Shown here one piece after another: positions 15,612 through 43,188 of a DNA stretch of 43,188 bases. Location of the stretch: IMG/VR virus record IMGVR_UViG_3300031772_000075; one strand, given 5' to 3'. The notes under the pieces were generated by a model. That model was not told the DNA's origin, did no database searches, and saw only the letters and a list, made by a program, of their open reading frames with translations. A program made the translations under genes and the position numbers. Position 1 is the stretch's first letter; each line of letters begins with the position of its first letter. The stretch comes from a virus.

Positions 15612-15742
15612 GGCGTCTCCGACATACGGTACGCTCGGAATTGCTTGCAACAATCGGCATTAGCGTGCTAAACTGCACAGTATATCCTTTGGGGGGTATA
15701 CTGCGCGAGCGCGTCGCCGACAGTTTGACGGGAGAGGTGGCA
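15612..15742. promoter_or_regulatory. divergent intergenic region with candidate sigma-70-like promoter elements
   Basis: 131-bp AT-richer gap between divergent genes. On the + strand: TTGCAA, 17 bp, then extended -10-like TGcTAAACT; also TATACT near 15706. GGAGAGGTGG lies 2 nt before the ATG at 15743. Confidence 0.3.
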
Positions 15743-16435
15743 ATGGAAATCGGAAAGGTGGGCCAGCAGGCCAAGACTATTCGCGTACCCGGCAAGCCTT
15801 TGAAGAGGATCCCGGAAAAGCTGCCCTGGCCGCGGCATTCAAAGGCGGACGTGGACGAGAGCGGGAAGGTCATGCCGTCCGTCCCGCTCGGGATCGACGT
15901 CGTCGCAAAGAAGCTCGACATCACGAAGATCGTGCACAAGTTCTTCCGCGTGGAAGGGTACTCGATGGAGGAGCTCCTACAGGAGGTCTTCGTCGCTATC
16001 ATCCACAAGAACTGCACGCGCTCGGCCCACAATCCGAACAAGAGCTCTTTCGGCCACTATGTCTACATGGTGGCCAACAACGTGTGCGTCAACCTGGTGC
16101 ACAAGAAGCGCCGCTACGATCGTGAGAAGGACTCCATCGACGCGCCCGTGAGCGCCGACGACGCGAGGTCCATCCTCGACACCGTCGAGGACCTGAACGC
16201 CCGGCAGGAGCCCGACGCGTTCACGGAGAAGATGGAGGAGTTCGAGCACGCCCTCCGGATGAAAGGAGAGTGGGACCTGGCCCGCTACATCCGCGCTGTC
16301 CGCTCCGGGGCGAGCGCCGACGTCGTCCGCGAGTCCCTGTCGTTCGGTGAGCGCAAGGTCACCACCAAGACAATCCGCGACTTCAAACAGCGGATTCCGG
16401 CCGCCGTCCGGCTCATCGCAGCGACGCTGAGCTAG
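15743..16435 (+). CDS. ECF-like (sigma-70 family region 2 + region 4) sigma factor
   Basis: EELLQEVFVAIIHK...SSFGHYVYMVANNVCVNLVHKKRR resembles sigma region 2.1-2.2 of ECF sigmas (..F.TWLY.IARN..ID.LR.RRR). A C-terminal HTH-like segment is also present (ESLSFGERKVTTKTIRDFKQRI). ATG with a strong SD; the tabulated TTG start at 15641 was rejected. Confidence 0.6.
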   Translation: MEIGKVGQQAKTIRVPGKPLKRIPEKLPWPRHSKADVDESGKVMPSVPLGIDVVAKKLDITKIVHKFFRVEGYSMEELLQEVFVAIIHKNCTRSAHNPNKSSFGHYVYMVANNVCVNLVHKKRRYDREKDSIDAPVSADDARSILDTVEDLNARQEPDAFTEKMEEFEHALRMKGEWDLARYIRAVRSGASADVVRESLSFGERKVTTKTIRDFKQRIPAAVRLIAATLS

Positions 16436-16791
16436 TGCAGGCTCGGAAGAATATCGTCGTCGGCAAGGGCCTCCACCTCGGACGTGGCGGCCCTCCGTAG
16501 TTCTTCATCCTCGGCATAGTGGTGGACGAGCATGGACGCCTCCCGCCTGACCATGTCGGCGATGGCGCTCTCTTTCGGCCTCTCCGGCATGCTGAGAAGG
16601 CCCTCTCGAAGCCTCGAAAGGGCCATCTCCAGCAGCTGTTTTTCCGTTTCAAGGACGCCCGAGCCGGACGGTCCTATGTTCTGGAGGACGTGCTTTCGCG
16701 CGAGCCTCCGGGCGTAAGTCTTGAGGAGACCTTCCATTCTGACGGAAAGTACAGGTCCGGCCGCCCTACCTCCGGGCCTGTACTTGGTCAA
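16432..16791 (-). CDS. hypothetical protein (101-119 aa; start uncertain: TTG at 16791 or ATG at 16737)
   Basis: Convergent with the sigma gene (4-nt overlap). Protein-like composition; no firm motif. Confidence 0.4.
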   Translation of the reverse strand: MTKYRPGGRAAGPVLSVRMEGLLKTYARRLARKHVLQNIGPSGSGVLETEKQLLEMALSRLREGLLSMPERPKESAIADMVRREASMLVHHYAEDEELRRAATSEVEALADDDILPSLH

Positions 16792-16795
16792 GGTC

Positions 16796-17527
16796 TCAAC
16801 TCACGTGCGCGACGGCGGCGTTCTTCTCGGCCTTCTTGATGTAGTCCTCGGCGTCCTGGTCCGTCGCCGGCTTCGCGGAGGCCTTGGCCCCGGCGTTCTG
16901 GAAGGTGGCGGCGGGGCCGTCCCCGGACTTGGTGAAGCGGGTGGTGATCTTGAGCTGGTTGTAGAGGGACTGACGGCTCCACACCTTGAAGCCGTGCTTC
17001 TTGGCGAAGGCCTCGCAGCCGTGGAAGATCTCGGCCGCGGTCAGCGCCTTTCCGGCCCCCGCGATGATGTCCCGGGCGACGACGTCGAGCTTGAACCCCT
17101 TCTTCCCGTTCAAGTCTTCCCCGCTGTCGGGCGCTTTCGGCGCCTTGGCGGGCTTGGCTTTGGCGGAGGGCTTGGCTTTGGCGGAGGCCTTCGCGGCGGG
17201 CTTGCCCTTCGCGGCGGGCTTCTTCGCGGCGGGCTTGGCCTGGGCCGGCTTCGCGGAGGCCTTGGCCTGGGCGGGAGCCGACGGCGTGACCATGGCCGCG
17301 TTCGAAATGCCGGCGATGAGGGACCGGAGGACCGACGAGTTCTTCCCGTTCTCCTGGATCTTCTTCTCGATCTGCTCCTGATGCTTCAGGATGCTCTCGT
17401 CGTTGTTTGCGATTCCGCGAATCAGCTTGTCGGCCTGGGCCCCGGCGTTCCGGACCTCAGTCTTCGTCTGAAGCTTCTTCGGCTTGGGTGTGGACACGGT
17501 CTTCGTCTGCGTCTTCGTCTTAGTCAT
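16796..17527 (-). CDS. histone H1-like / Lys-Ala-Pro-rich nucleoid-associated protein
   Basis: MTKTKTQTKTVSTPKPKK N-terminus. A central block of AKPAAK/AKAKPS repeats is encoded by 18-19-bp tandem repeats. The C-terminal region is globular. ATG preceded by GGAGGATTGAGAG. Confidence 0.7.
   Translation of the reverse strand: MTKTKTQTKTVSTPKPKKLQTKTEVRNAGAQADKLIRGIANNDESILKHQEQIEKKIQENGKNSSVLRSLIAGISNAAMVTPSAPAQAKASAKPAQAKPAAKKPAAKGKPAAKASAKAKPSAKAKPAKAPKAPDSGEDLNGKKGFKLDVVARDIIAGAGKALTAAEIFHGCEAFAKKHGFKVWSRQSLYNQLKITTRFTKSGDGPAATFQNAGAKASAKPATDQDAEDYIKKAEKNAAVAHVS
17151..17188. repeat. short tandem repeat (about 18-19 bp x2) encoding AKAKPS repeats
   Basis: ggcttggctttggcggagg repeated in tandem. 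Confidence 0.6.
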
Positions 17528-17592
17528 CTCTCAATCCTCCGTGGACCTTTCCGGGCCCACTTTACCAATTTTTACAGTTTCACACAATAGCG
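17528..17592 (-). promoter_or_regulatory. candidate promoter upstream of the H1-like gene
   Basis: AT-richer 65-bp spacer. On the minus strand: TTGTGT, 17 bp, TAAAGT. Confidence 0.3.
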
Positions 17593-17802
17593 TCACGGGG
17601 TTCTTCGTCTGTCCCTGCGGCCCTGCCTTGCGGCCCTCAACCTCTCGATATCCCCGCTCGACACCACTCCCATTTTTCGGCAGATATACTCACGGCGGTC
17701 CTCGTGGTTCGTGAGCACCGCCCGGAGCCGGGGATCTCCGAACTCCTCGGACAACCCCACCATCTGGGACCACAGCGCCTGGAAGTTTGGCTTGTTCAGC
17801 AC
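17593..17802 (-). CDS. small hypothetical protein (69 aa)
   Basis: GTG start, high GC3, bounded by AT-rich spacers on both sides. Confidence 0.3.
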   Translation of the reverse strand: MLNKPNFQALWSQMVGLSEEFGDPRLRAVLTNHEDRREYICRKMGVVSSGDIERLRAARQGRRDRRRTP

Positions 17803-17859
17803 CCACGACTTTACTGACTGATTTTACCGTGCCGAGTATCGTATTTACGGGGACTGTCG

Positions 17860-18027
17860 ATGACTTACGACGAGTTTTCAGACAAACTGGACAAGATGAC
17901 CGCCGAGTTCCGCCGGGTGAACGGCAGGGACATGACCACGCTCGCGGAGCTGAAGGCCTTTCTCGACCGGCGCCTGACGAAGCCGAAGAAGCGGGGTGCT
18001 AGAAGTTTGAAGGGCCTGTTCGGGTGA
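17860..18027 (+). CDS. small hypothetical protein (55 aa; MTYDEFSDKLDKMTAEFRRVNGRDM...)
   Basis: ATG at 17860 after an AT-rich 57-bp divergent spacer. The TGA overlaps the start of the J-domain gene (GTGATG). Below the 60-aa cut-off of the ORF track. Confidence 0.35.
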   Translation: MTYDEFSDKLDKMTAEFRRVNGRDMTTLAELKAFLDRRLTKPKKRGARSLKGLFG

Positions 18028-18353
18028 TGGACCTATGTGAAGCCTGGCGCCTTTTCGGCCGCGACCTACCCTCCATCGTGGCCGACGCCCGGGCCCGGAA
18101 GAGGGATCAGAGGATGCCCTTCTTGGACGGCCTACTGGAGGAGGCAAAGAAGACCAGGAAGGCTCTGCTTGCCAAGCACCACCCGGACCGGGGTGGGGAC
18201 CCCTCGCAGTTCAAGCGGGTCGAGGACGCCTTCCAGGCCATTGAGAAGGGGACCGAGGAGGCCAGACAGGGCTTCCGGGAGGCCGACGAGAAGCGGGTGG
18301 CGGACCGGGAGAGCAAGCGCTCAGTCTTCATTGACGTGGACCCGCTAAAGTGA
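18024..18353 (+). CDS. J-domain-only protein
   Basis: KALLAKHHPDRGGDPSQFKRVEDAFQAIE is a J-domain helix II-III with HPD. No Zn-finger or C-terminal domains. Confidence 0.65.
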   Translation: MMDLCEAWRLFGRDLPSIVADARARKRDQRMPFLDGLLEEAKKTRKALLAKHHPDRGGDPSQFKRVEDAFQAIEKGTEEARQGFREADEKRVADRESKRSVFIDVDPLK

Positions 18354-19123
18354 ACATTCTTTCATGCGTCCAGTTCCAGCCTCGTTTCGCCAGATGCCCG
18401 GCGGACGTGTCGGACAACGTCAGGCGCTCAGCTCCCCTCATACACGAGGCGGGCCGCGTCGGGTCCCAGCTCATCGTCTTTCCCGAGCTGGCCTTCACCG
18501 GATACTCGTTCCTCGACCGCGACCAGGCCGCCGCCGTCGCCGAGGCGCTCGACGGCATGACGTTCCGGGCCATGCGGGCGGTCGCCGTTGAGCTGAAGGC
18601 CTACGTCGCCTGGGGCTACGTCGAGTCCGCGGAGGGCAGGCTTCACAACTCCTGCTCCATGGTCGGTCCGGACGGCGCCCTCGTCTCCAGTTACCGGAAG
18701 ATCAACCTTTGGGGCAACGACTTTCTTTGGGCCTCACCCGGGAGGGAGCCTGCCCCGATAGTCCAGACCGAGCTTGGTCGGACGTCGGTGATCATATGCC
18801 GGGATCTTCGGGACAAGGTCCCGACGAACATCCCCATCATGGCTTCGAAGAAGCCTCAGCCCTTCTGGAAGGCCCAGAAGGTGGACGTCGTGGCCGCCTG
18901 CCTCAACTGGGGGAAGGGAGGGTTCCCGTCGACGACCTGGATGGACTTCGCCGCCGACAACGAGTGCACCCTGGCCGTCGCCAACCGTTGGGGCGCCGAG
19001 GAGAACGGGACCTTCCGTCAAAGCTTCGGGCAGGGCGGCTCCTGCGTCATCCGCCCCGACTGGACGGTCCACACCGGCGGCTTGAAGTTCAACCAGGACT
19101 GCGTCGTCTCCGCCAGCTATTGA
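18350..19123 (+). CDS. carbon-nitrogen hydrolase (nitrilase superfamily)
   Basis: Catalytic triad contexts are present: LIVFPELAFTGY (Glu), YRKINLW (Lys), VIICRDL (Cys). GTG start overlapping the previous stop (GTGA). Confidence 0.75.
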   Translation: MNILSCVQFQPRFARCPADVSDNVRRSAPLIHEAGRVGSQLIVFPELAFTGYSFLDRDQAAAVAEALDGMTFRAMRAVAVELKAYVAWGYVESAEGRLHNSCSMVGPDGALVSSYRKINLWGNDFLWASPGREPAPIVQTELGRTSVIICRDLRDKVPTNIPIMASKKPQPFWKAQKVDVVAACLNWGKGGFPSTTWMDFAADNECTLAVANRWGAEENGTFRQSFGQGGSCVIRPDWTVHTGGLKFNQDCVVSASY

Positions 19124-19187
19124 CGTAGCTCGGTCGGCGCCCGGCGTAACCTCCGCCATGGGCATTGCGCTCAAGGAGGCGAAGAGG

Positions 19188-20288
19188 ATGTACTCGGCCG
19201 TGAACTCTGAGAATAACGCAATTCATCACTTCTTGAACGTCTTTCGTGAGGCCGTCAACAAGAAGAGTGTGAATGCATCTCTAAACCTGGCATACCTACG
19301 TTCGGGGATACTCCAGTTTGTCGAGTATCAGGCTGAAGGCGGACAGAAGATGATGCTCCCTTACAGGGAGGCGTCATCTTCCTTGGAGCGCGCTCGACTG
19401 TTCGAAATCAGCCATGATGAATACCGTGAAATGCATGTGGCCATCCATGAGTCCCTAGGCCTTGCAGGGGAACAGCCTGGAGATGAAGAACTCGGCCGGT
19501 ATCAACCTGCGGTAGAAGATCTCATTTCTAAAGTCCCCTTTCCACCTCGTCTCCCGTTTCCGCATATCTATATTGGAATATCCAGTCCGGTAGTTCTGGA
19601 CGGGCGCATCCTGCTTTGCGGGTTCTTGCTGGGTCAGCACGGCCAGGCGTGGGAGCTCAGCATAGACTCTTCGAGGGAAGTTCCGATCGTAATGCCTCTC
19701 ACGACGGCTTGCTCCACATATCCGACCGCTCAGGACAAGAGTGTGGGCATTTGGAGGTCGAGGATAGCCGGTCAGTACTCGCCTGCCGCTTTCCTCATGT
19801 ATGAGATAGTGCAGGCAATCATCGGATTCCAAAATCTTAAGATTGAGGTTCCGGACCTCCTCACTAAGCTTTTGGCGAAGAAAAACCGAGTGCCGGGCTT
19901 CCCGAAGGTCGTTCCACCGCCTTTTTACCGTATTCCCCTTACAAATCAGATAGAACGAGTCAAACTTCAGATCCAGCGTCGAGAGATTTCGAAAGGTTCC
20001 TCTTTCTCATACGTTCATGACGTGTGTGGTCATTGGATGACGAGAATCGTTAAAGGCACGACGCCCATCGATCCCAAGTTGTTCAAAAGACTCGTGAAGC
20101 GTGAATACCTGATCTGGATGGACAGATCCAAAATGCCGAAAGAGTATCACGATCTGCTCTCGAAGCGTGGTGTTTATGCGAACTCAGACGAATGGGTCGC
20201 CATTCTTCGTTCTTGGAGAACGGACTTCAAGCGCCCGAAGAACCGTCCGGATCTCCCTTACGTTCCCGCGACGAGAGTTATGGAGTGA
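19188..20288 (+). CDS. hypothetical protein (366 aa) in a lower-GC island
   Basis: ATG with AAGGAGG 9 nt upstream. G+C drops visibly (about 50% by eye) exactly over this gene and returns to high G+C at both ends. No confident domain; weak PD-(D/E)xK-like hints only. Confidence 0.55.
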   Translation: MYSAVNSENNAIHHFLNVFREAVNKKSVNASLNLAYLRSGILQFVEYQAEGGQKMMLPYREASSSLERARLFEISHDEYREMHVAIHESLGLAGEQPGDEELGRYQPAVEDLISKVPFPPRLPFPHIYIGISSPVVLDGRILLCGFLLGQHGQAWELSIDSSREVPIVMPLTTACSTYPTAQDKSVGIWRSRIAGQYSPAAFLMYEIVQAIIGFQNLKIEVPDLLTKLLAKKNRVPGFPKVVPPPFYRIPLTNQIERVKLQIQRREISKGSSFSYVHDVCGHWMTRIVKGTTPIDPKLFKRLVKREYLIWMDRSKMPKEYHDLLSKRGVYANSDEWVAILRSWRTDFKRPKNRPDLPYVPATRVME

Positions 20289-20322
20289 GCCCCGAATAGG
20301 CTTCCTGTCCGTACGGTCTGGT

Positions 20323-20757
20323 ATGGCGGACAACAACCCGATGCATCCCGGACTTCCTCCCTGCCCTCAGCCGTTCGACGACGGCAGCGACTGCGGGTGT
20401 CACACCATCGAGGACATGTCGGTCGACGTGAACCCCGAAAAGAACTGCTGCACGAAGTGCACGGGGGACACGGAGTGCAACATCTGGTTCACGCTCCGCG
20501 CCCCCGGTTTCCCCGGCCGCTGCATCCTGGACGAGCTGACGTACGACCAGGTCTACGACGTCCTGCTTCGAAACCCGAACGCGGCCCGGGACCTTCAGAG
20601 AATCACGAACGACCCGAAGCTCCTGTCGCTCGCGCGCGAGGTCAAGCTCATCGCCCCCGACCAGCAGGACGCTGAGGCGGCGGCCAAGCGCCTCAACGCC
20701 AACAGCCTTCCGTTCTACACCGTCCTCCGGGGAAACTCGGACGGGACCGTCCGATAG
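20323..20757 (+). CDS. Cys-rich hypothetical protein (144 aa)
   Basis: ATG (MADNNPMH...). CPQPFDDGSDCGCH...NCCTKCTGDTECN cysteine cluster. The tabulated start at 20167 runs through the 3' end of the preceding gene. Confidence 0.45.
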   Translation: MADNNPMHPGLPPCPQPFDDGSDCGCHTIEDMSVDVNPEKNCCTKCTGDTECNIWFTLRAPGFPGRCILDELTYDQVYDVLLRNPNAARDLQRITNDPKLLSLAREVKLIAPDQQDAEAAAKRLNANSLPFYTVLRGNSDGTVR

Positions 20758-20780
20758 AGCTTTTCTCGTCGAACGGACAC

Positions 20781-21602
20781 ATGGAGCCCGACAAGCTTTC
20801 CCTTTGCCTCAAGCGCCTGGCGTCCTTCCTGGACCACGGTGCCGTGACCAGGGAGGCGGCGGTCTCCGCCATCAACGGCCTCATCCTCGCCACGGACAAG
20901 TCTCTCGCCCTCGCGGTGAGGGAAGCACTCCATGCCGAGATAGAGAAGCTCATGCCCGGGAAGTTTGAGCTGTACGACACCAACCCGGACGGCAAGGGGT
21001 GGAGGGCCGGCTATATCTCCTTCGGCCTCGGCCCGTCGCAGTGGAAGGACGAGGGAATCATCGGCGGAGTCCTGATTCAGGCCGACTATAACCCGAAGCT
21101 CTTCCGCTCCGAGGCGCCGGAGCCCGCGGACCCGAAGTTCCAGCACTCCCAGGGCGGCGGGATCCTGGAGCTCACGGTAACGGGATGCTATTACAACAAG
21201 CTCCAGGGCGGCGGGTGTGACTCGGACACGGCCGTGGGCGTCGTCGGCCTCAGCGGCGCCGATGTCTACGTCGACGTCGACGAGAGCGTCTTCCAGACCG
21301 ACATCGTCGACCCCGGGATGACGGTGGCCGGACTGGACAAGATCATCCGGGAAATTTCGTCCAACCCTCCGGACTATGCGCAGTCCGAAGGGCGCAAGAG
21401 GAAGAGCCGGGCTCCGACGGGCAGCCCCCAGTCGCTCATGGCGTGGCTCATTCAGCAAAAGCGGTCGGACGTCGGACAGTCCGAGATCGACGCCCTTGCG
21501 AACGCCCAGTCGGCGAAGTCCGGCAAGGCCGTCGGGAACGCGAAGAAGGACATAGCGGACTTCTTCCGAAGCCGGCAGTGGCCCATCAACCCGAACGCCT
21601 AG
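20781..21602 (+). CDS. hypothetical protein (273 aa)
   Basis: Balanced protein-like composition. The opposite-strand 336-aa ORF (20715-21725) is R/L/G/V-rich antisense and was rejected. Confidence 0.55.
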   Translation: MEPDKLSLCLKRLASFLDHGAVTREAAVSAINGLILATDKSLALAVREALHAEIEKLMPGKFELYDTNPDGKGWRAGYISFGLGPSQWKDEGIIGGVLIQADYNPKLFRSEAPEPADPKFQHSQGGGILELTVTGCYYNKLQGGGCDSDTAVGVVGLSGADVYVDVDESVFQTDIVDPGMTVAGLDKIIREISSNPPDYAQSEGRKRKSRAPTGSPQSLMAWLIQQKRSDVGQSEIDALANAQSAKSGKAVGNAKKDIADFFRSRQWPINPNA

Positions 21603-21901
21603 CTCTGGGAGACTAGCTCGACCAGCAGCGTGTTCGGAAGGTCCTTGATGGCCTTCTGCACTACCTCTCGCTCCTCGCCGAACACGTACCAGACCTTCGG
21701 AAGACCGTCCTCGCCGACCTTGCACACGGCCTTCCTGCCGCCACCGGCGGTGACCTGGCGCACGGTGAACTCGGCCTCCTCTCTGTAGCCCTTCAGCGGC
21801 TTCAGGAGGGCCGTGATCTCAAGGGTCACCTTGTCACTGACAGGACAGCTCCATATCACGGTCCTTCTACTGTCGGGAGCCCGGGATTTACGCCCCGGCA
21901 C
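21599..21901 (-). CDS. possible small protein (about 100 aa) downstream of MazG
   Basis: The C-terminal 85 aa are protein-like. A GTG start 2 nt after the MazG stop is preceded by AGGT. The N-terminal part of the tabulated ORF (to 22057) overlaps MazG in another frame and was rejected. Confidence 0.3.
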   Translation of the reverse strand: MPGRKSRAPDSRRTVIWSCPVSDKVTLEITALLKPLKGYREEAEFTVRQVTAGGGRKAVCKVGEDGLPKVWYVFGEEREVVQKAIKDLPNTLLVELVSQS

Positions 21902-21902
21902 T

Positions 21903-22403
21903 TTACCTGAGGGGCTTCCCGTAGTATCCGTCCCGGGCTCGTTGAATGACGACCTCAACTTTGTCGTTGACGAGCTTGGACAGGTTGATGTCAAGGACGT
22001 GGGCGAGCACGTGCGAGTACACGATGACGTCCGGAAGCTCCGACTTGACGGCCTCAAGGACCCTGGCCTGGTCCTCGCCGTTCCGGCGGGCCTTCACGAT
22101 GGCGTTCGCCATCTCGCCGGCCTCCCCGCATATGCCGAGGGTGTAGTACATGGCGGGGTCGTTCCCGTAGGCGTCCTTCTCACCCATCCGCTTGGACTCG
22201 CAGATGGCCTTGTGTGAGCGGATGATCGATGCGGACAGGTCTTCGTCGGCGTCTTCGAGAGAGTCCAGAAGCTCCTTCATCCGGCGGTCGACGTCGTCCT
22301 CCAGCCTGGACATGAGGAGGGTGCTGTGGAAGGCTTCGCGGACCTTCTGCAGCTCGTCGATGCGGGCCCGGATCTCGCTCTTCGTCTCGACAAGGCCGTT
22401 CAT
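21903..22403 (-). CDS. mazG: MazG-like nucleoside-triphosphate pyrophosphohydrolase
   Basis: YYTLGICGEAGEMANAIVKARRNGEDQARVLEAVKSELPDVIVYSHVLAHVLDINLSKLVNDKV is a typical all-alpha MazG core (EVGEL.E...EElGDvL.y...la..lgid). The ATG overlaps the upstream HD gene's stop (ATGA). The tabulated 306-aa ORF N-terminal extension was rejected. Confidence 0.7.
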   Translation of the reverse strand: MNGLVETKSEIRARIDELQKVREAFHSTLLMSRLEDDVDRRMKELLDSLEDADEDLSASIIRSHKAICESKRMGEKDAYGNDPAMYYTLGICGEAGEMANAIVKARRNGEDQARVLEAVKSELPDVIVYSHVLAHVLDINLSKLVNDKVEVVIQRARDGYYGKPLR

Positions 22404-23053
22404 ACCGTGAACCTCTGGGCGAACCCCTCCGCCATGTGCCCGTACAGCGAGGCCAGGGAGGGCCGGTGATCGAAGTTCCTCGGTTTTGTGCCTGCGGCTT
22501 CGTTGAGCTTCTTCGCCATACTCTTCAGGTCCTCGATCATGCGGCCGAAGAACGGGTCGATCTCGGAGTTCCCGCGCTTCTTCTCCCGCCACATGTACTG
22601 GTATAGGGACATGAAGTCGGCGGCCTTCACCACGTCCTTGGCATAGTCGCCCTTCCAATGGTGCGTGTGGCCGAACGACGTGATGTGAAGGTGAACCTCG
22701 TCGAGGAGTGAGCGGACTTCGACCGGGAGGGAGGACGCTAGGCCTTGCTCTGCTTTGTTCACGGCCGCCCGGAACTCCTCGGACGAGTATTTGAAGGTGC
22801 GGACGATGTCTCCGGAGAGGCACTCTAGTGCGTCGTGCGTGAGCGCGTGCTGCATGATGAGCGCGTCCAGCTCCTTCGGCCCGACCAGCTTCCGGTGGAT
22901 CATCATGCTGTAGACCGACACCCAGTACATGTGCGTCGAGTCGTTCTCCGGCACCGTCACCGGGATGCTGCTATAGCGGGTTACATAGTCGAGCCGCCTT
23001 ATGTCACTTGAGGCGGCCTCCAGCAGTGGCTTCCAGTCGAGGATCTTCTCCAT
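22400..23053 (-). CDS. HD-domain 5'-deoxynucleotidase (YfbR-like)
   Basis: ENDSTHMYWVSVYSMMIH aligns with YfbR ENVSEHSLQVAMVAHALA. ALIMQHALTHDALECLSGD aligns with LLAMYHDASEVLTGD. KDVVKAAD aligns with KSLVKQAD. Confidence 0.7.
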   Translation of the reverse strand: MEKILDWKPLLEAASSDIRRLDYVTRYSSIPVTVPENDSTHMYWVSVYSMMIHRKLVGPKELDALIMQHALTHDALECLSGDIVRTFKYSSEEFRAAVNKAEQGLASSLPVEVRSLLDEVHLHITSFGHTHHWKGDYAKDVVKAADFMSLYQYMWREKKRGNSEIDPFFGRMIEDLKSMAKKLNEAAGTKPRNFDHRPSLASLYGHMAEGFAQRFTV

Positions 23054-23237
23054 CCTCCGAGAGTACAGCGGCTGCGTCCACCTGCTCCGGCGTCAGGTCG
23101 TTGATGGTGACTGACGCCCCCCGGGCCGCGAACTCGCCGAGGAGCTGCTCGGCCTCGGGCCTTGTCATCATCGCGTGACGGACGACCGTGTCGCCCTCGT
23201 CGTCGACGTACTCGATGGAGTGGAACCTCTTGCTCAC
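23004..23237 (-). CDS. possible small protein (77 aa), GTGA-coupled to the pcp-like gene
   Basis: A GTG start overlaps the pcp stop. The tail is protein-like (VSKRFHSIEYVDDEGDTVVRHAMMTRPEAEQLLGEF...). The remainder of the tabulated 267-aa ORF is an R/P/G-rich artefact. Confidence 0.3.
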   Translation of the reverse strand: MSKRFHSIEYVDDEGDTVVRHAMMTRPEAEQLLGEFAARGASVTINDLTPEQVDAAAVLSEDGEDPRLEATAGGRLK

Positions 23238-23881
23238 CGTGCACCGTGCTGGGACCGGTACCACTGGGAGACCTGCCCGACGAGGGCCACCGAAGCCTCG
23301 ACGATGCCGGAGAACGAGGCGGTCGACCAAAGCTCGTCCTCGATGACGCCGAAGTCGTTTGGAAACGCGACGTGTATGAAGCCGGCGGCCACGAAGTGAG
23401 GCTGGGGGACGGTCGCCAGATGGTGCAGGACTCCGTACATGAGGGAGTTGCAGACGTGGGTTCCGGCCGAATAGGAAAGCTTGCTGGACACGCCCATTTC
23501 GTTCAGCCTTTCCACGAGGCTGGCGGCCGGGATGGTGGGCTCGTACGCTGGAGGGCCTCCTCGCACGGCGGGCCTGTCCTGGACGGGGATTCGGCTGTTG
23601 TCGCCCATCGGGGAGCGCTCGACGTTGATCGCGAACCGCTCTACCCTCAGGGGGTCGTTCTTCTGAGTGGCTCCGAACATGAGGACGGCGTTCGGCTGAA
23701 AGGCCCCCATCTCCGTGACGAGGATCTCGGTGCTCTTGCCATAGAGCTGAGGGAGGACCAGGCCGCGGACCTCGACTCCCGGGACGGAGACCGCCCCCTC
23801 GTGCCACAGCTTGGCCAGGTCGCCGCTCGGCGAGCGCCTAATCCCCCAGATTGGCTCGAAGCCGGTCAGGACGACCTTCAC
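23234..23881 (-). CDS. pcp: pyroglutamyl-peptidase I (pyrrolidone-carboxylate peptidase, C15)
   Basis: VKVVLTGFEPIW...ERFAINVERSPMGDNSRIPVQDRPAVRGGPPAYEPTIP...SYSAGTHVCNSLMYGVLHH matches Pcp throughout (MKVLVTGFEPF...ERVAIN.DDARIPDNEG..P.D.PI...GPAAYFSTLP...SNTAGTFVCNHLFYG.MH). GTG start with AGGA upstream. The tabulated N-terminal 108 aa were rejected. Confidence 0.8.
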   Translation of the reverse strand: MKVVLTGFEPIWGIRRSPSGDLAKLWHEGAVSVPGVEVRGLVLPQLYGKSTEILVTEMGAFQPNAVLMFGATQKNDPLRVERFAINVERSPMGDNSRIPVQDRPAVRGGPPAYEPTIPAASLVERLNEMGVSSKLSYSAGTHVCNSLMYGVLHHLATVPQPHFVAAGFIHVAFPNDFGVIEDELWSTASFSGIVEASVALVGQVSQWYRSQHGAR

Positions 23882-23923
23882 TCCGATCCTGTACCATAGG
23901 AGTTTGATGGGAGCGTTCTTTCG

Positions 23924-24262
23924 ATGGAGCCTACTGTCCTGTCCGAACACCTCAAGAAGCTGGCCGGCCTCATCGACCGGTCTGAGGCTCCGAGCGCGAA
24001 GGCCGTTCAGGCCGAGCTGGAGCACGTCGTCGCGTCCCTCGAAGGGCGGCAGGCGGCGAAGCTCAACAAGTTCATGGACAAGGACTTCGAGGGCGCCCTC
24101 GACGGGCTCGACAACCTCATCAAGAAGCTCGACAAGACTTCCCGGACCCTGAACCCCCAGGACGAGGGGAAGGCCGAGATCGAGGAGTCGCTGACGGTGC
24201 TCCATCAGCTCCGCAACAGCGTCAAGAGCACGGTCGACGGACTTGAGTCCGTGAACGTTTAG
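23924..24262 (+). CDS. hypothetical coiled-coil protein (112 aa)
   Basis: ATG. K/E/D-rich, heptad-like composition. Divergent from pcp. Confidence 0.5.
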   Translation: MEPTVLSEHLKKLAGLIDRSEAPSAKAVQAELEHVVASLEGRQAAKLNKFMDKDFEGALDGLDNLIKKLDKTSRTLNPQDEGKAEIEESLTVLHQLRNSVKSTVDGLESVNV

Positions 24263-24675
24263 GGCTTTTTCCAGGTCCTCTTGAAGACCTCGACGAGGTC
24301 CTCCCGGGGATTGGCCTTCGCCGCTTCAAGCTTTTCCATCAGCTCCGGGAGGTCGAGCCCGACAAGCTCTGCCGACGCCCGGAGGGCGGCCATCGTCTTC
24401 TCCGGGTCGTCTCCCGGCTGGGAGAGCGCCTGAACGGCGGCCATCGCCGTCCTGGACCGCCATGTCTCCTCTTCCGAGAGCTTGAAGGCCTCCGCCGTCC
24501 CGTCGTGACGGACTCCCAGCCAGAACCCTTCTGCGACCTCGACCTGAGAGCACGGCTTGACGAACATGTCGTTCAGGTACTCGCCCGTGCGCGTGAAGGC
24601 GCCCTCGAACGCTTCCACGTAGTGCGGGACGCACGGCGGGACAAGGTTGGACGGACCCCAGGCTCGTACTCTCAT
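24259..24675 (-). CDS. hypothetical protein (138 aa)
   Basis: Protein-like composition. 4-nt convergent overlap with the preceding gene. Confidence 0.5.
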   Translation of the reverse strand: MRVRAWGPSNLVPPCVPHYVEAFEGAFTRTGEYLNDMFVKPCSQVEVAEGFWLGVRHDGTAEAFKLSEEETWRSRTAMAAVQALSQPGDDPEKTMAALRASAELVGLDLPELMEKLEAAKANPREDLVEVFKRTWKKP

Positions 24676-35455: not shown

Positions 35456-36154
35456 ATGAAGACCTGTCCGAAGTGCGGGGGTACAAAGGATCTGAACGAA
35501 TTTTCGCCAAGCCGTCAGCATGTAGCGAGCTGGTGTCGTTCGTGCACAAATAAAACAACGCGCTTCGTCCGACTTCGGAACAAAATGGTGGCCATCGCCC
35601 GATATTCTGACGGCAAAATGGCGTGCTCTTGTTGTAGTGAACCTCGCATTGAGTTCTTGGTCATAGACCATCCGAACGGAGGAGGTGGAAAGCACAGAGC
35701 CTCTATCGGACATAATATTTACAGTTGGCTCAAAAAAGTCGGGTATCCGGACGGATTCCGGGTCTTGTGCTCGAATTGTAACTCGTCCATCGGCGCTTAC
35801 GGATACTGTCCTCATTCTGGTAGGACAAACTTTCCGGACGTTGTTCCCGAGATCAGACCTAGAGCTTTTCGTCGAGGTATGGGGCACCCCGGCCGGAAGC
35901 TGGACGATATCTCAGTTGCGGACATTCGGGAAGGTCTATGTCTCGGCGTCAGTCTCTCTTCTTTGTCCCGGAAGCACGGGGTCTCCATCCGGACGATCCG
36001 GAAGATCCGTGATGGGGAGGCGTGGGTCCATGCCGACGAGCCTCAGAACGCCCTCCACGAGCCTAATTCTCTCCTGCATAATATGGGTCGCGATGGTGAA
36101 GTATCTCAGTCCCCACATCTCCAGCATGAACTTAACGTAGCTGTCGATCCTTAG
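35456..36154 (+). CDS. HNH homing-endonuclease-like protein (N-terminal zinc ribbon, HNH core, C-terminal HTH)
   Basis: CPKCGG...CRSC zinc ribbon. The HNH core is IDHPNGGGGKHR...VLCSNCNSS. The C-terminal segment is helix-turn-helix-like (SLSRKHGVSIRTIRKIRDGEAW). The gene lies in a lower-GC island. The last ~70 codons overlap the convergent kinase gene. Confidence 0.75.
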   Translation: MKTCPKCGGTKDLNEFSPSRQHVASWCRSCTNKTTRFVRLRNKMVAIARYSDGKMACSCCSEPRIEFLVIDHPNGGGGKHRASIGHNIYSWLKKVGYPDGFRVLCSNCNSSIGAYGYCPHSGRTNFPDVVPEIRPRAFRRGMGHPGRKLDDISVADIREGLCLGVSLSSLSRKHGVSIRTIRKIRDGEAWVHADEPQNALHEPNSLLHNMGRDGEVSQSPHLQHELNVAVDP

Positions 36155-37031: not shown

Positions 37032-38132
37032 TCACACGGCCTCCGGAAGGTACTCGGAGAGGGTACGTCCGACCATGCGGCCACGGAGCTTCTTGAGAGC
37101 CTTCTCCTCTATCTGCCGGATTCTCTCACGGGACAGGTCGTAGCGGTCAGCGACCTCCTGGAGCGTCAGCTGGCCCGTGTCGTCGATTCCGAACCTGTGC
37201 CGGATGACGCGGGACTCGAACGGGTTGAGGCCTGAGAGGAGCGAGAGCAGCTCGTCGTTGGCCTCCGCCGAGAACAGGCTGTCGAGCGGGCTCGGGAACG
37301 TCTCCGACGTGAGCGTGTCCAGGAGGCAGAATCCCTCCTCCTCACCTGCCGGGGCGTCGAGGTGAAGGACCCTCTGCCGGCTCAGGAGCGCGGTCAGGAC
37401 CTTCTCGACGCTGATCTTGGCCGCCTTCGCCATCTGGTCCGGGTCCATGCCCGTCCCGTTCTCCGCCATGTGCCCGCCGTCCAGGCGCGAGAGCTTTTGG
37501 GCGAGCTCGCTCATGTGGACGGGGATGCGTATCGGGCCCTCCTTGTCCGAGACGGCCCGCTTGACGTGATGCCGAATCCACCAGACGGCGTACGTCCCGA
37601 ACCGGAACCCGCGGTCGACGTCGAACCGGTCGACCGCCCGCATGAGCCCGATGTTCCCCTCCTGAATAAGGTCGCCCAGGGTCTGGTGATGGCAAAGCCT
37701 GGCGTACTTCTTCACGATCGTGACGGTGAGGCGAAGGTTCGCCGTCACAAACTCGTTCTTGATGCGCTCTCGCCTGGCGTTCAGGCCTCCGACGCGACGG
37801 TCCTTAGACCCGACCGCGGCCGTCAGGCACTCCTGAAACCAGGTCCGGCCGGAGTCCGTGAGCCGGACGAACCGGACGACGTCCCTGTGAAGCCCGGACT
37901 TGTTGAACAGCCTGGCGGGAAGGTGAACCTCGTCCTCCTTCCCTGCGGCGGCCCTCAGGCTTGACTCGCTGGCCTTGTCCTTCAGGAAGGCCGCCACCAT
38001 GTCCGACTCGACGGTCATGAGCTTTCGGAACGTCGCCGTCTCCTCCTCGAAGGTCGGGACGGAGACCTCAGACATGCTGGAGAAGTACTTCGTAAGCGCG
38101 TTCCCGGGAGCGGTTTTCGCGTTCGAGGACAT
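37032..38132 (-). CDS. RpoD/RpoS-like sigma-70 family sigma factor (regions 1.2/2/3/4)
   Basis: ANLRLTVTIVKKYARLCHHQTLGDLIQEGNIGLMRAVDRFDVDRGFRFGTYAVWWIRHHVKRAV is near-identical in pattern to the RpoD region 2 consensus. Region 4.2 is LTLQEVADRYDLSRERIRQIEEKALKKLR. ATG preceded by AGGTGG. Confidence 0.85.
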   Translation of the reverse strand: MSSNAKTAPGNALTKYFSSMSEVSVPTFEEETATFRKLMTVESDMVAAFLKDKASESSLRAAAGKEDEVHLPARLFNKSGLHRDVVRFVRLTDSGRTWFQECLTAAVGSKDRRVGGLNARRERIKNEFVTANLRLTVTIVKKYARLCHHQTLGDLIQEGNIGLMRAVDRFDVDRGFRFGTYAVWWIRHHVKRAVSDKEGPIRIPVHMSELAQKLSRLDGGHMAENGTGMDPDQMAKAAKISVEKVLTALLSRQRVLHLDAPAGEEEGFCLLDTLTSETFPSPLDSLFSAEANDELLSLLSGLNPFESRVIRHRFGIDDTGQLTLQEVADRYDLSRERIRQIEEKALKKLRGRMVGRTLSEYLPEAV

Positions 38133-41516: not shown

Positions 41517-41936
41517 TCAGTAGCGGTTCCCGGAGTCGCGACGGGAGCCCTTGCCTCTTCCACCACCGCCGCCGCCAGCGGTGGGATTGTCGTACACGCG
41601 GGGGCGGCTGTCACCGCCTCCGGCGTCGGTGCTGTACCCGCCGCTGGCGCGGTACCCGCCACCACCACCACCACCGCCACTGCGCGCAGGCCGGTCCTCC
41701 GCCTCGTTGACACGGAGGTTCCGGCCGGCGAGGGCATACCCGTTCAGCTCCTGGATGGCCTTCTTGGCGTCGGCCTCCGTGGACATGGTGACGAAGCCGA
41801 ACCCGCGGCCCTGGCCCGTCTCACGGTCGGTCATGACCTTGGCGTCGGTGACCGGGCCGACCTGTTCGAAGGCCTGCTTGAGGTCCTCGGTGCTGAGCTG
41901 ATACGAGAGGTTTCCGACGTAAAGACGATTGCCCAT
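41517..41936 (-). CDS. RRM-type glycine-rich RNA-binding protein
   Basis: RNP-2 LYVGNL and RNP-1 RGFGFVTM at canonical spacing. Gly-rich C-terminal tail (GGGGGGGGYRASGGY...GGGGGGRG). GAGGA 6 nt upstream of the ATG. Confidence 0.85.
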   Translation of the reverse strand: MGNRLYVGNLSYQLSTEDLKQAFEQVGPVTDAKVMTDRETGQGRGFGFVTMSTEADAKKAIQELNGYALAGRNLRVNEAEDRPARSGGGGGGGGYRASGGYSTDAGGGDSRPRVYDNPTAGGGGGGRGKGSRRDSGNRY

Positions 41937-41937
41937 T

Positions 41938-42333
41938 TCATTCCTCGTTACCTACGGCCGTCTGGCCGTAGCTTTTTGCGAGGCGCTCCTTTAGCGCCCC
42001 CATCTCTTTCGCCAGGGACTCCCTCTGGGATTCCGTTAGCGCAAGCCTTCTGTGCACTCGAAGCTCCTCCAGGAGCTCCGTCCCGCGCTGCTGAAGCTCG
42101 CCGACCTGGCGAAGCCGGTGGGCGTCGTCGTCAAGGAGCCTCTGCATCGTCTTTTTCGCGACGAGGAGGAGTCCGCCGCCGCTCGACGTGGTGAGGAACT
42201 CGTTGAGCTCCTCCGGGAGCCCGTTCGGGCCCTCTACCACGATCTTGAATGGCTTGCCGCGCCACACGCCCTCGCGTGAGAAAGAAACTTGTTCGTCCTG
42301 ATCCGTCACCGAGATCCTGATCGCGTCCTTCAT
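41938..42333 (-). CDS. hypothetical protein (131 aa)
   Basis: The ATG overlaps the stop of the upstream low-GC gene (ATGA). Its stop lies 1 nt before the RRM gene's ATG. Confidence 0.5.
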   Translation of the reverse strand: MKDAIRISVTDQDEQVSFSREGVWRGKPFKIVVEGPNGLPEELNEFLTTSSGGGLLLVAKKTMQRLLDDDAHRLRQVGELQQRGTELLEELRVHRRLALTESQRESLAKEMGALKERLAKSYGQTAVGNEE

Positions 42334-43046
42334 GTCCCGATTTTACAGTCTGTCAGGTTCTTGGGATTTACATTTGCGACTGCTTTACAGAACCCGAGGA
42401 GCTCGGAGTCGCTGAAATTTGATCGGGCCACGTTCGCCATGAACGTTACAAACCTTACATTTCCCTTGAGATACCCAACTGCATGATCCATTCGGTCCAA
42501 GCTCGCATTACACGGGTTCCGGACTGCCCATCCGATAGCACCGTCCGGGAGAACCATTCCCAAGGATGAAAGAGCGCAAAGACCTCTCTGACTTTCCCAC
42601 AACAGTTTTAGAAATGGTAGGTCTAAGTCGGTTTCCCCCTTGTGATGTCGTTGCCGAGCTCTTGTCAAAAACCAACGAAATTGAGAGTATTCATCCTTCA
42701 CTCCACCCCGATTCAGCTGGTCAGCCTTCGGCGGGGTCCGTCGGTTCCTATCCCTTAGGTGACAGGCCGTCGAACAAAAGAAATGGGAACGACCCCTCTT
42801 TTGCCACCTATCTACTTCCCGCTTTTCTTTGGGAAAAGGGTTCTGGCACAGGTGACACTCTAATTGGATCAGAGAACGAGACCCTGAGTAGGTTTCCCCG
42901 TACCTCTCAGCATTGGTCGTTTTCACCTGACACGAGGTCGAACAGAAGAACCTAGTCACTCCTCTTCGAAGCTGTCGTTCGTGCTCTTTCCTCGGTTTGG
43001 GAAATGGTTTTTGACATGTCGGACAGTTCAGTTCCACCCAGTTCAT
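42330..43046 (-). CDS. double zinc-ribbon protein with C-terminal HNH-like (HNH_3-type) endonuclease domain, in a lower-GC island
   Basis: Two repeated modules: NCPTCQKPFPK...FFCSTSC and ECHLCQNPFPK...FFCSTAC. The C-terminus SLDRMDHAVGYLKGNVRFVTFMANVARSNFSDSE resembles the H..N..N core of phage HNH_3 endonucleases. GC is visibly lower (about 50% by eye). Confidence 0.55.
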   Translation of the reverse strand: MNWVELNCPTCQKPFPKPRKEHERQLRRGVTRFFCSTSCQVKTTNAERYGETYSGSRSLIQLECHLCQNPFPKEKREVDRWQKRGRSHFFCSTACHLRDRNRRTPPKADQLNRGGVKDEYSQFRWFLTRARQRHHKGETDLDLPFLKLLWESQRGLCALSSLGMVLPDGAIGWAVRNPCNASLDRMDHAVGYLKGNVRFVTFMANVARSNFSDSELLGFCKAVANVNPKNLTDCKIGT

Positions 43047-43083: not shown

Positions 43084-43088
43084 ATTTG

Positions 43089-43188
43089 TGGAGCAGGCGG
43101 GAGTCGAACCCGCGTCCACGAGACCTGTTACTTAGTCCTCTACGTGCGTATCCGAGGATACCCCGTCGGCAGGGTGCGCGGGTTCGGC
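43089..43188 (-). ncRNA. ssrA: tmRNA (ssrA-like) 3' portion; gene continues beyond the window end
   Basis: The minus-strand RNA ends ...GGACGCGGGTTCGACTCCCGCCTGCTCCA. This matches the conserved tmRNA T-arm and acceptor 3' end (E. coli ...GGACGCGGGTTCAACTCCCGCCAGCTCCACCA). The terminal CCA is not encoded. Confidence 0.6.

Follow-up and report, generated by a model that had tools for sequence, protein, structure and literature searches.

Introduction

In the virus record IMGVR_UViG_3300031772_000075, a stretch of 43,188 nucleotides that we refer to as the window, base composition falls sharply over a single gene for a 366-residue protein. A preliminary description, made from the sequence by eye, regarded this gene as a recently acquired, moron-like insertion and suggested a role in defence, anti-defence or superinfection exclusion. 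The locus thus raises two questions: is the gene foreign to the genome that carries it, and what might its product do?

Results

The gene runs from 19188 to 20288 on the + strand (366 codons plus stop), as judged from the reading frame, composition, orthologues and dN/dS. The enclosing open reading frame extends from 19158 to 20288, and the ATG at 19188 is the start codon that fits both the orthologues and the Shine-Dalgarno sequence. The latter is the AAGGAGG reported previously, which we confirm at 19173-19179, 8 nt upstream of the ATG, within an intergenic spacer of 64 nt (19124..19187, + strand). The limits 19124-20322 coincide with the intergenic borders on both sides. With dN/dS values of 0.13-0.16 in three pairwise comparisons, this is a real gene under purifying selection; the same values and the full-length orthologues rule out a pseudogene or a non-coding origin.

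The compositional anomaly noted by eye holds up when computed. The coding sequence has a GC content of 0.513 and a GC3 of 0.583, compared to 0.626 for the window as a whole and to means of 0.626 (sd 0.034) for GC and 0.82 (sd 0.086) for GC3 in the 55 other candidate genes (z = -3.3 and -2.8, respectively). A GC content of 0.52 or less is found in just 0.3% of all 1101-nt segments, every one of which starts between 19111 and 19221, and the gene is the lowest-GC stretch of 1.1 kb in the window. The drop is as abrupt and as precisely placed as had been claimed: a 300-nt profile falls from 0.667 to values of 0.47-0.56 and, at the borders of the gene, recovers to 0.62-0.65. GC1 and GC2 are near those of the other genes, and the deviation lies at third codon positions. 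As the shift is mainly synonymous, it fits a foreign origin, and the synonymous-site composition of the gene is indeed foreign to this 63%-GC genome.

The immediate neighbours are those named in the preliminary description. Upstream lies its nitrilase-family gene, a carbon-nitrogen hydrolase gene with a normal GC3 of 0.87 (18350..19123, + strand; Pfam PF00795, E = 1.1e-25). Downstream is a gene of normal GC3 for a Cys-rich protein of 144 residues (20323..20757, + strand), with eight cysteines in the first 70 residues. This protein is retained in distant syntenic relatives, at 48-49% identity by tblastn in the huge-phage contigs L029 and L030; a pattern search of IMG/VR revealed no relative of it. 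The low-GC gene belongs to a string of co-directional genes, located where this large phage of lytic type has its functions for replication and nucleotide metabolism. A megablast search with 16 kb of the window gave no match among GenBank phages.

L029 and L030 retain the surrounding gene order, and the slot between their carbon-nitrogen hydrolase and Cys-rich genes contains unrelated open reading frames on the minus strand, in which the family HMM (see below) finds no match at E <= 1. Because this slot holds other genes in the distant relatives, we conclude that the 366-residue protein gene was acquired and that its slot is variable, although the accessory gene string around it is conserved in this lineage of large phages. 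An empty site lacking the gene was not found among the relatives compared. The two closer relatives, L001 and L002, which are about 82% identical to the window in nucleotide sequence, both carry the gene at the same locus and with low GC, so that it is present in all three members of this group. The flanks of the three are not invariant: the carbon-nitrogen hydrolase gene is absent from L002, where a J-domain-like gene directly precedes the orthologue, and a downstream gene for 273 residues has no tblastn-detectable counterpart in L001, which has a gene for 300 residues at the corresponding position.

This distribution does not agree with the earlier description of the gene as recently acquired. 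The orthologous proteins P0001 and P0002 are 89% and 86% identical to the window protein; in the comparison with L001 its amino-acid identity is 87%, in line with the 84-90% of the flanking genes. The acquisition is thus older than the clade formed by the window, L001 and L002. The idea of a moron-like gene holds in part. In common with phage morons, it is a single accessory gene of deviant composition lying between genes that are adjacent in relatives. However, lambdoid-type morons are located in the late operons of temperate phages, whereas this gene is in a large phage, in a region of early or replication type. Unlike morons, it lacks its own promoter and terminator, and it is sufficiently old for diverged relatives to share it. 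A scan using only a sigma-70-type consensus found no promoter-like site in 17500-21800, and the terminator-like sites (four, compared to 3.6 expected from shuffled sequence) include none flanking the gene. Flanking repeats, another part of the moron comparison that did not stand, are also missing. Repeats near the gene are limited to short matches in two copies (13-18 nt, 83-92% identity), which rules out a transposon-like insertion.

Could the gene be native after all, its low GC being due to amino-acid composition or to selection on expression level? Its presence in three related phages with flank-like amino-acid identity, and the persistence of a low GC3 in all three copies (0.58, 0.62 and 0.66), are what such an explanation has in its favour. 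The rise in GC3 across the copies is also what slow amelioration would produce, and the concentration of the deviation at third positions, together with the absence of the gene from the slot in L029 and L030, makes a native origin very improbable.

Comparison of the three copies shows that close relatives have exchanged segments of the gene through recombination, producing intragenic mosaicism. The spacer at 19124..19187 is 95-96% identical to L001 against a background of 80-85%. Third-position divergence to L001 is 0.186 in the gene and 0.24-0.50 in 13 other genes, with a dS of 0.15 over residues 1-117 and of 0.41-0.50 elsewhere. A recombinant block covers residues of about 118-192 (19539..19763, + strand), as seen in sliding identity and in dS: identity is 0.78-0.86 between the window and L001 but 0.94-0.99 between L001 and L002, and the dS of the latter pair is 0.077 in residues 118-192, compared to 0.60-0.67 on both sides. 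Positive selection in this variable mid-domain was considered and ruled out (dN/dS 0.22-0.31), the recombinant block explaining the pattern.

Low GC and mosaicism could both reflect spread between phages, as expected if the gene encoded a new type of selfish, laterally moving nuclease similar to a homing endonuclease. Apart from this gene the window has just two low-GC islands (35456-36154 and 42330-43046; GC3 0.53-0.56). Both are genes of the HNH/endonuclease-VII type, whose matches to phrog_2255 and phrog_3322 (E about 1e-16) served as a positive control for our domain searches. Like free-standing homing endonuclease genes, the gene combines a similarly low GC3 in the same genome with a patchy distribution, the absence of a conserved partner and signs of lateral exchange, having the lowest synonymous divergence to L001 among 14 genes as well as the mosaic blocks. 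Moreover, its closest remote relative, P0003, adjoins an open reading frame that is HNH-like by eye (CCIRCNMLK). On the other hand, the slot is filled by other genes in distant relatives and so provides no clean empty site, and the family gene in other phages has the GC content of its own host genome. The structural side of this proposal is taken up below.

Searches for remote homologues of the protein returned 353 at E <= 1e-3, 108 of them at E <= 1e-10. It belongs, as a divergent member, to an undescribed family numbering 353 or more clusters at 50% identity. The family core of roughly 300 residues always lies C-terminally, as seen in 153 proteins, and is preceded by N-terminal extensions of very different lengths (median, 102 residues). 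Family loci are found on IMG/VR contigs of 26-372 kb and every locus recovered is of phage type; across 11 of them there is no conserved neighbour gene. Subfamily-specific patterns identified just one family locus in 185,579 species genomes. There was no tblastn match to the 366-residue protein, to P0035 or to the family consensus in 50,697 GenBank phage records, nor to the first two in the PLSDB plasmids.

The earlier failure to assign a domain was borne out by Pfam, PHROGs and NCBIfam, none of which matches the protein, and by PADLOC-DB, which matches neither it nor four neighbours and five family members. Up to 81 relatives searched against Pfam and PHROGs, and the C-terminal module alone against Pfam, gave no nuclease match. 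One small, unannotated PHROG matches three of the 81, and one family member contains a NikA-like ribbon-helix-helix domain. PDB sequence searches with three different profiles produced chance-level matches only.

An AlphaFold model calculated from the three close sequences alone had a pLDDT of 33 and was discarded; the model used here has a pLDDT of 78.5 and a pTM of 0.79. Residues 1 to about 59 (19188..19364, + strand) are clade-specific and predicted to be helical, with helices at 8-24 and 30-50 (pLDDT 47-74). In the jackhmmer alignment only 3-25 of 158 sequences, and no remote members, align before residue 60 or so, compared to 120-154 of 158 in the conserved core that follows (residues about 60-366; 19365..20285, + strand). 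A predicted β-meander and a low-confidence loop make up residues 118-192 or thereabouts (pLDDT 50-60 for 171-200), and the mid-domain consensus L.PW..IN.H.T of the family is absent from the window copy. According to the alignments and per-column conservation, the most conserved part is a strongly basic C-terminal module (residues about 235-366; 19890..20285, + strand), very rich in conserved Arg and Lys, with the consensus PPPYY.V ... SHR.DVRGHE..RI.RG.LP.DPK...L.KRGY.IFT ... DEW.AI...W ... PYIPAVR and a pLDDT of 86-97 over residues 271-366. At its centre is a predicted β-hairpin, D278-V-C-G-H282-W283 (20019..20036, + strand), corresponding to the family consensus D-V-R-G-H-E/W. Conservation in remote members is high (D in 123, V in 134, R in 131, G in 133 and H in 135 of 150); R280 of the family is replaced by Cys in the window copy alone.

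In the model the hairpin is formed by strands 276-279 and 282-291, followed by helix 296-304, and this β-β-α element would be the catalytic one if the protein were a nuclease. The R-G-H sequence is reminiscent of DRGH, a motif found in His-Me-finger nucleases of the Serratia/EndoG type. However, the metal-ligand Asn/His is not conserved in the helix, no match to HNH, GIY-YIG, LAGLIDADG, Endonuclease_NS or other nuclease domains was obtained for any member searched, and the protein differs from homing endonucleases in its larger size and in a core of about 300 residues common to 353 proteins without nuclease annotation. We consider it unlikely that the gene is a selfish nuclease.

The basic module is also compatible with a nucleic-acid-binding accessory of the phage's own transcription, replication or recombination, with no role in conflict. 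The window, 43 kb of genes for replication, recombination, nucleotide metabolism and sigma factors, is a fitting location for such a protein; the abundance of conserved Arg and Lys and the ribbon-helix-helix domain of one member point the same way. Yet syntenic relatives that retain all neighbouring genes lack this one, which is therefore dispensable for the core programme. Given also its foreign composition, the widely varying N-terminal extensions, the lack of a conserved neighbour and the absence of family members from the GenBank phages, we regard a function in the phage's own programme as improbable.

Comparison with AcrVA2

A Foldseek search of the PDB with the model found nothing (best E-value, 0.7). 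The structural neighbours in BFVD are all phage proteins: A0A516MAB0 (795 residues; E = 8e-11) and A0A0U2BXG8 (267 residues; E = 1e-4), both with a Foldseek probability of 1.00, and A0A385EG88 (401 residues). A0A0U2BXG8 is from Paracoccus phage Shpa and A0A385EG88 from Caulobacter phage CcrSC. TM-scores are just 0.17-0.41 and there is no tblastn sequence similarity in GenBank phages; as all three proteins are uncharacterised, they do not inform on function. This leaves AcrVA2 as the family's only structural neighbour, a weak one, which makes the protein a candidate host- or rival-interference factor.

The AcrVA2/FinQ family (Pfam PF26125) includes the anti-CRISPR protein AcrVA2 of a Moraxella bovoculi prophage (PDB 7ci1) and the fertility-inhibition protein FinQ of IncI plasmids. 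AcrVA2 consists of a helical N-terminus, an α/β middle and C-terminal strands with a His/Arg hairpin (PMC10846135); its residues H286, R288 and H291 are essential. Homologues are carried by plasmids and by phages, jumbo phages among them, and combine a divergent N-terminus with a conserved C-terminus whose His/Arg residues are essential.

The same order of elements is seen in our model. Both families comprise single-gene proteins of 260-410 residues that mobile elements encode as stand-alone genes and that vary at the N-terminus but have a basic C-terminus that is conserved. Both have a hairpin with R-G-H-[WYF], a co-linear P..P..Y.[IV] some 35 residues before it and, as the last strand, P-A-[VI]-x-V. 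When hhalign was restricted to the sub-domain, P..P..Y.[IV] and R-G-H-W were aligned in the same order and with the same spacing (P = 0.014-0.046), placing the D278-H282-W283 hairpin on R289-G290-H291-W292 of AcrVA2.

There are also clear differences. Full-length profile-profile comparison was not significant (hhalign P = 0.09-0.24) against AcrVA2 alignments of 47-57 sequences, which took in FinQ and homologues from Acinetobacter, Erwinia, Leptospira and Lactobacillus phage. HMM cross-searches between the two families gave nothing consistent, and PF26125 is absent from the precomputed Pfam domains of P0001, P0002, P0086 and P0152 (0 of 4). All AcrVA2 homologues compared contain H-[IL]-R-[RK]-[GA]-H, whereas our family has just R-G-H in register: the column of H286 is variable and that of R288 is Val in 134 of 150 sequences. 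The window copy departs further, with Cys for R280 and with the mid-domain consensus lost. The family also has a helical insertion of roughly 45 residues after the hairpin, which AcrVA2 lacks. AcrVA2 homologues are found in 689 plasmid and 57 phage records, in contrast to the absence of our family from GenBank phages and PLSDB, and our family has no known link to Cas12a.

Discussion

The proposed role in defence, anti-defence or exclusion is plausible, its one direct support being the weak resemblance of the predicted structure to AcrVA2. More specifically, and tentatively, we suggest that the protein is a stand-alone interference factor similar to AcrVA2/FinQ; membership of the AcrVA2 family is not established. 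By analogy, it would act alone. Recognition of one particular protein of the host or of a rival element, possibly as a nascent chain, would fall to the variable N-terminal and middle regions. The conserved basic β-hairpin module (D-V-R-G-H) would make contact with nucleic acid or cut it, so that less of the recognised target is expressed. A broader version of this reading, which we find doubtful, is that the family forms a large branch of the AcrVA2/FinQ superfamily, sister to the known one, which sequence methods have missed and for which the loci are so far all of phage type. Its members would recognise different host or rival proteins by means of their variable N-terminal parts and silence them via the R-G-H hairpin.

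Should the AcrVA2-like reading fail, the locus would still illustrate cleanly how a conserved gene string, common to phages from 36% to 63% GC, can include a variable slot, and would still define a new protein family with no Pfam or NCBIfam match and a single PHROG for 3 of 81 members. If the reading is true, target-specific silencing of host or rival genes becomes a candidate function for several hundred uncharacterised proteins from large environmental phages. For AcrVA2, whose chemistry is unsolved, the mechanism has been described in one case only; a second, divergent branch retaining no more of the motif than R-G-H would reveal the residues that count. And if the family does form a sister branch, translation-coupled, polypeptide-specific silencing would be a general weapon of large phages, extending beyond Cas12a.

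Composition and coding status of the low-GC gene

The GC-poor open reading frame (ORF) at 19158-20288 (+) begins translation at ATG 19188, the start called in its orthologues, with AAGGAGG at 19173-19179, and encodes 366 residues. The preliminary description had given this start signal and length correctly, together with the flanking genes: a nitrilase-family gene upstream, here a carbon-nitrogen hydrolase (CN-hydrolase, 18350-19123; PF00795, E 1.1e-25), and on the other side an ORF for a Cys-rich 144-aa protein (20323-20757). The coding sequence (19188-20288) has a GC content of 0.513 (0.56, 0.40 and 0.58 at the three codon positions), compared with 0.626 for the window. GC falls and recovers at the gene borders, confirming the abrupt drop described earlier. 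The 55 other candidate genes have a mean GC of 0.626 (s.d. 0.034) and a mean GC3 of 0.82 (s.d. 0.086), and the gene lies well below both (z = -3.3 for GC, z = -2.8 for GC3). Equally GC-poor windows of 1101 nt make up 0.3% of the total, and every one lies on this gene. The low-GC observation is correct and well above chance. That this is a native gene of odd composition is very improbable, as the deviation sits at third positions and the comparison of its locus with relatives (see below) speaks against it.

Only two other genes in the window are comparably GC-poor: 35456-36154 (+; GC 0.53, GC3 0.56), which matches phrog_2255 'HNH endonuclease' (E 4.9e-16), and 42330-43046 (-; GC 0.50, GC3 0.53), which matches phrog_3322 'endonuclease' (E 1.4e-16) and secondly endonuclease VII. 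Both encode Cys-rich proteins of the HNH/endonuclease-VII type and are probably free-standing homing endonuclease genes. Low GC3 is a mark of laterally moving genes in this genome.

In a collection of 5.8 billion proteins, the only relatives of the 366-aa protein are P0001 (89% identity) and P0002 (86%), both full length. Pairwise dN/dS is 0.13-0.16, and the reading frame is therefore under purifying selection. The gene lies in a co-directional string consisting of a 55-aa ORF, a J-domain-like ORF, the CN-hydrolase, the gene itself, the Cys-rich ORF and a 273-aa ORF. A site scan found no promoter-like sites in 17500-21800, terminator-like sites around the gene were no more frequent than in shuffled sequence, and there are no meaningful flanking repeats.

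The surrounding phage genome

The window encodes a DnaB-like helicase, a primase-like protein, a family-A DNA polymerase, DnaJ, a dCTP deaminase, an HD hydrolase, a UvsX-like recombinase, an SbcC-like ATPase, RuvC and sigma-70-type factors; the scanned proteins, a subset of the ORFs in 43 kb, include no structural-gene matches. Relatives of the CN-hydrolase are found on IMG/VR contigs of 126-437 kb, which makes the window a piece of a large phage. At the DNA level, the 16 kb of it that were compared by megablast have no match in GenBank phages.

Several other features were seen. The gene at 37032-38132 (-) encodes a complete sigma-70-family factor (regions 2, 3 and 4), and 15641-16435 (+) encodes a second, weakly matching sigma-like protein (phrog_1740, E 5.6e-6). 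By eye, 41517-41936 (-) reads as an RRM-type RNA-binding protein with a Gly-rich tail. A 243-aa protein (16796-17527, -), which has no family match and is kept in all three of the contigs L001, L029 and L030 described below, contains a long repeat region rich in Lys, Ala and Pro (AKPAAKKPAAKGKPAAKASAKAKPSAKAKPAKAPKAP), reminiscent of histone-H1-like DNA-binding tails. Finally, Rfam gives a tmRNA match (RF00023, 49.1 bits) at 43086-43188 (-), cut off by the window end; ARAGORN found nothing there, probably because the gene is truncated. The match may stem from a tmRNA gene of the phage itself, such as huge phages have been reported to carry (bioRxiv 10.1101/572362), or from an attachment site in a host ssrA gene.

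A variable slot in a conserved gene string

Two close relatives carry the gene at the same locus. The 42.5-kb contig L001 has the order CN-hydrolase, low-GC gene, Cys-rich gene, as in the window. In L002, the Cys-rich gene again follows, but a J-domain gene takes the place upstream: comparison of L002 25-440 with window 18024-19188 shows the J-domain-like gene adjoining the low-GC gene and the CN-hydrolase (18350-19123) absent, so that the hydrolase is itself an accessory gene in this clade. In L001 and L002, respectively, the gene has a GC of 0.526 and 0.543 (flanks, 0.634 and 0.646) and a GC3 of 0.62 and 0.66. Amino-acid identity between the window and L001 is 87% for the gene product and 84-90% for the flanking genes. 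Given the shared locus, the low GC in relatives and the flank-like identity, the gene is older than the split of these phages, and the earlier proposal of a recent acquisition does not hold.

Two distant relatives, L029 (436-kb IMG/VR contig, GC 0.49) and L030 (141-kb contig, GC 0.36), were compared with window 15700-24300. Of the 13 surrounding genes queried, 11 and 8, respectively, are syntenic in order, at 30-63% amino-acid identity. A GC spread of up to 27 percentage points is unusually wide for one syntenic lineage, and phages of this type are a possible lower-GC donor pool for the low-GC gene. The slot between the CN-hydrolase and Cys-rich genes holds a 343-aa minus-strand ORF with a GDVHG motif in L029 (6771-7802, -) and a 135-aa minus-strand ORF in L030; a profile of the protein family described below matched neither locus at E <= 1. 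Read by eye, the GDVHG motif is typical of calcineurin-like metallophosphatases. For the window's 273-aa protein, tblastn detects no counterpart in L001, which has a 300-aa protein at the corresponding position. With other ORFs in the slot and a varying gene downstream, the slot varies within an otherwise conserved string, and the low-GC gene fills it only in the clade of the window, L001 and L002. Insertion of a foreign gene, as first proposed, is supported; a classical moron in the strict sense is not.

Downstream of the Cys-rich gene, neither 20781-21602 (+) nor 21599-21900 (-) has a tblastn-detectable counterpart in L001, where 300-aa and 88-aa genes lie at the corresponding positions (L001 9365-10520); nucleotide identity drops from 0.86 to 0.40 at about 20700. 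The region 20781-21900 is a second variable spot adjoining the slot.

The low-GC gene has the lowest third-position divergence from L001 of 14 genes (0.186; others, 0.24-0.50). Over 19090-19540, upstream spacer included, the identity between window and L001 is 94-98%; over 19540-19760 it is 78-86%, and in this second block L001 and L002 share 94-99%. By segment, dS between window and L001 is 0.15 within residues 1-117 against 0.41-0.50 in the rest, and between L001 and L002 it is 0.08 within residues 118-192 against 0.60-0.67 on both sides. The pattern is a mosaic: pieces of the gene have been swapped by recombination among relatives after the genomes diverged. Segment dN/dS reaches at most 0.31, giving no sign of positive selection. 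Such lateral exchange would suit a new kind of selfish nuclease gene, as would the company of HNH genes with matching GC3 and a hairpin-helix element with R-G-H in the protein; profile and fold comparisons gave it no support, and this reading is unlikely.

An undescribed protein family

Searches of Pfam, PHROGs, NCBIfam, PADLOC and PDB sequences gave no match to the protein, in line with the earlier failure to assign a domain. Run without filters against 1.84 billion cluster representatives, an HMM search retrieved 353 proteins of 124-1009 aa at E <= 1e-3, 108 of them at E <= 1e-10. Local iteration gave an alignment in which 120-154 of 158 sequences are aligned from about residue 60 to the end. 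The core is always C-terminal, with a median of 10 residues beyond it; the N-terminal extension before it has a median length of 102 aa and is longer than 300 aa in 23 of 153 proteins. Conservation is highest in residues 235-366 approximately (PPPYY.V, SHR.DVRGHE..RI.RG.LP.DPK, L.KRGY.IFT, DEW.AI...W, PYIPAVR). The window clade retains most invariant residues of this C-terminal module and deviates at R276 (Val), at R280 (Cys, window copy only) and in the mid-domain consensus L.PW..IN.H.T. Among 81 members examined, Pfam yielded a single NikA-like match, and an unannotated PHROG matched three; the C-terminal module alone matched nothing in Pfam or PDB.

Scans with subfamily-specific patterns found six loci in IMG/VR (contigs of 26-372 kb); among 185,579 species genomes they gave a single locus, on a 50-kb Bacteriovoracaceae MAG contig; as the patterns fit one subfamily, absences are only indicative. 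Tblastn found no match in 50,697 GenBank phage records (366-aa protein, family member P0035 and family consensus) or 72,556 plasmid records (the two proteins). Family loci on Logan contigs are small co-directional ORF strings with HD_4 and UDG genes, one with an ORF that looks HNH-like by eye. No neighbour gene is conserved across 11 loci. In other phages the GC of the family gene equals that of its surroundings, and low GC is therefore a trait of this acquisition, not of the family. With its 353 remote relatives, the 366-aa protein defines a family that has not been described before and has been seen in phage-type loci only.

In the window (20323-20757) and in several unrelated phage loci (L008 6610-6831; L010 7181-7459 and 8898-9431; L012 3838-4050; L005 3250-3444), small Cys-rich, zinc-ribbon-like ORFs adjoin the family gene or lie close to it. 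No homology among these ORFs could be detected, and the association may be coincidence.

Comparison with AcrVA2

An AlphaFold model of the protein (101-sequence alignment) has a pLDDT of 78.5 and a pTM of 0.79, with a pLDDT of 86-97 for residues 271-366. The predicted order of a helical N-terminus, an alpha/beta middle and C-terminal strands is that of AcrVA2 (PMC10846135). AcrVA2 binds the nascent N-terminal peptide of Cas12a, leading to loss of Cas12a mRNA, for which H286, R288 and H291 in its conserved C-terminus are required; the degradation chemistry is unknown, and its homologues, including the plasmid protein FinQ, have divergent N-termini and occur on plasmids and megaphages, usually without Cas12a (bioRxiv 10.1101/2022.11.29.518452; PMC13131331). 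We confirm this distribution: homologues occur in 689 plasmid records, often under the annotation finQ, and in 57 phage records, among them those of 260-kb Erwinia phages.

Like AcrVA2, our family has a variable N-terminus and a conserved, basic C-terminus. Sub-domain hhalign comparisons (P = 0.014-0.046) align AcrVA2 P248..P251..Y254.I256 with P241..P244..Y247.I249, and R289-G-H291-W with (R/C)280-G-H282-W at equal spacing, and a greedy full-length alignment is co-linear over 256 columns. Full-length profile-profile comparison gave P values of 0.09-0.24, also when the AcrVA2 alignments were extended with FinQ and with Acinetobacter, Erwinia, Leptospira, Lactobacillus and Salmonella phage homologues, and HMM cross-searches were empty. 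Residues H286 and R288, invariant in every AcrVA2 homologue read, have no conserved equivalents in the family, which in the model also has some 45 residues (helix, strand, helix) inserted after the hairpin. Because of these disagreements, we have not filed the protein as an AcrVA2 family member.

The basic C-terminus and the genomic neighbourhood would also fit a nucleic-acid-binding accessory protein for the phage's own programme, an unlikely reading given the gene's absence from syntenic relatives. The first interpretation is right in outline: the variable slot holds an accessory gene of foreign origin that encodes no known domain. An anti-defence or interference function is suggested by a grey-zone structural match and the shared layout, and a mode of action like that of AcrVA2/FinQ, though tentative, is the best available hypothesis. 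If the resemblance is not real, this would be a new family of unknown function.
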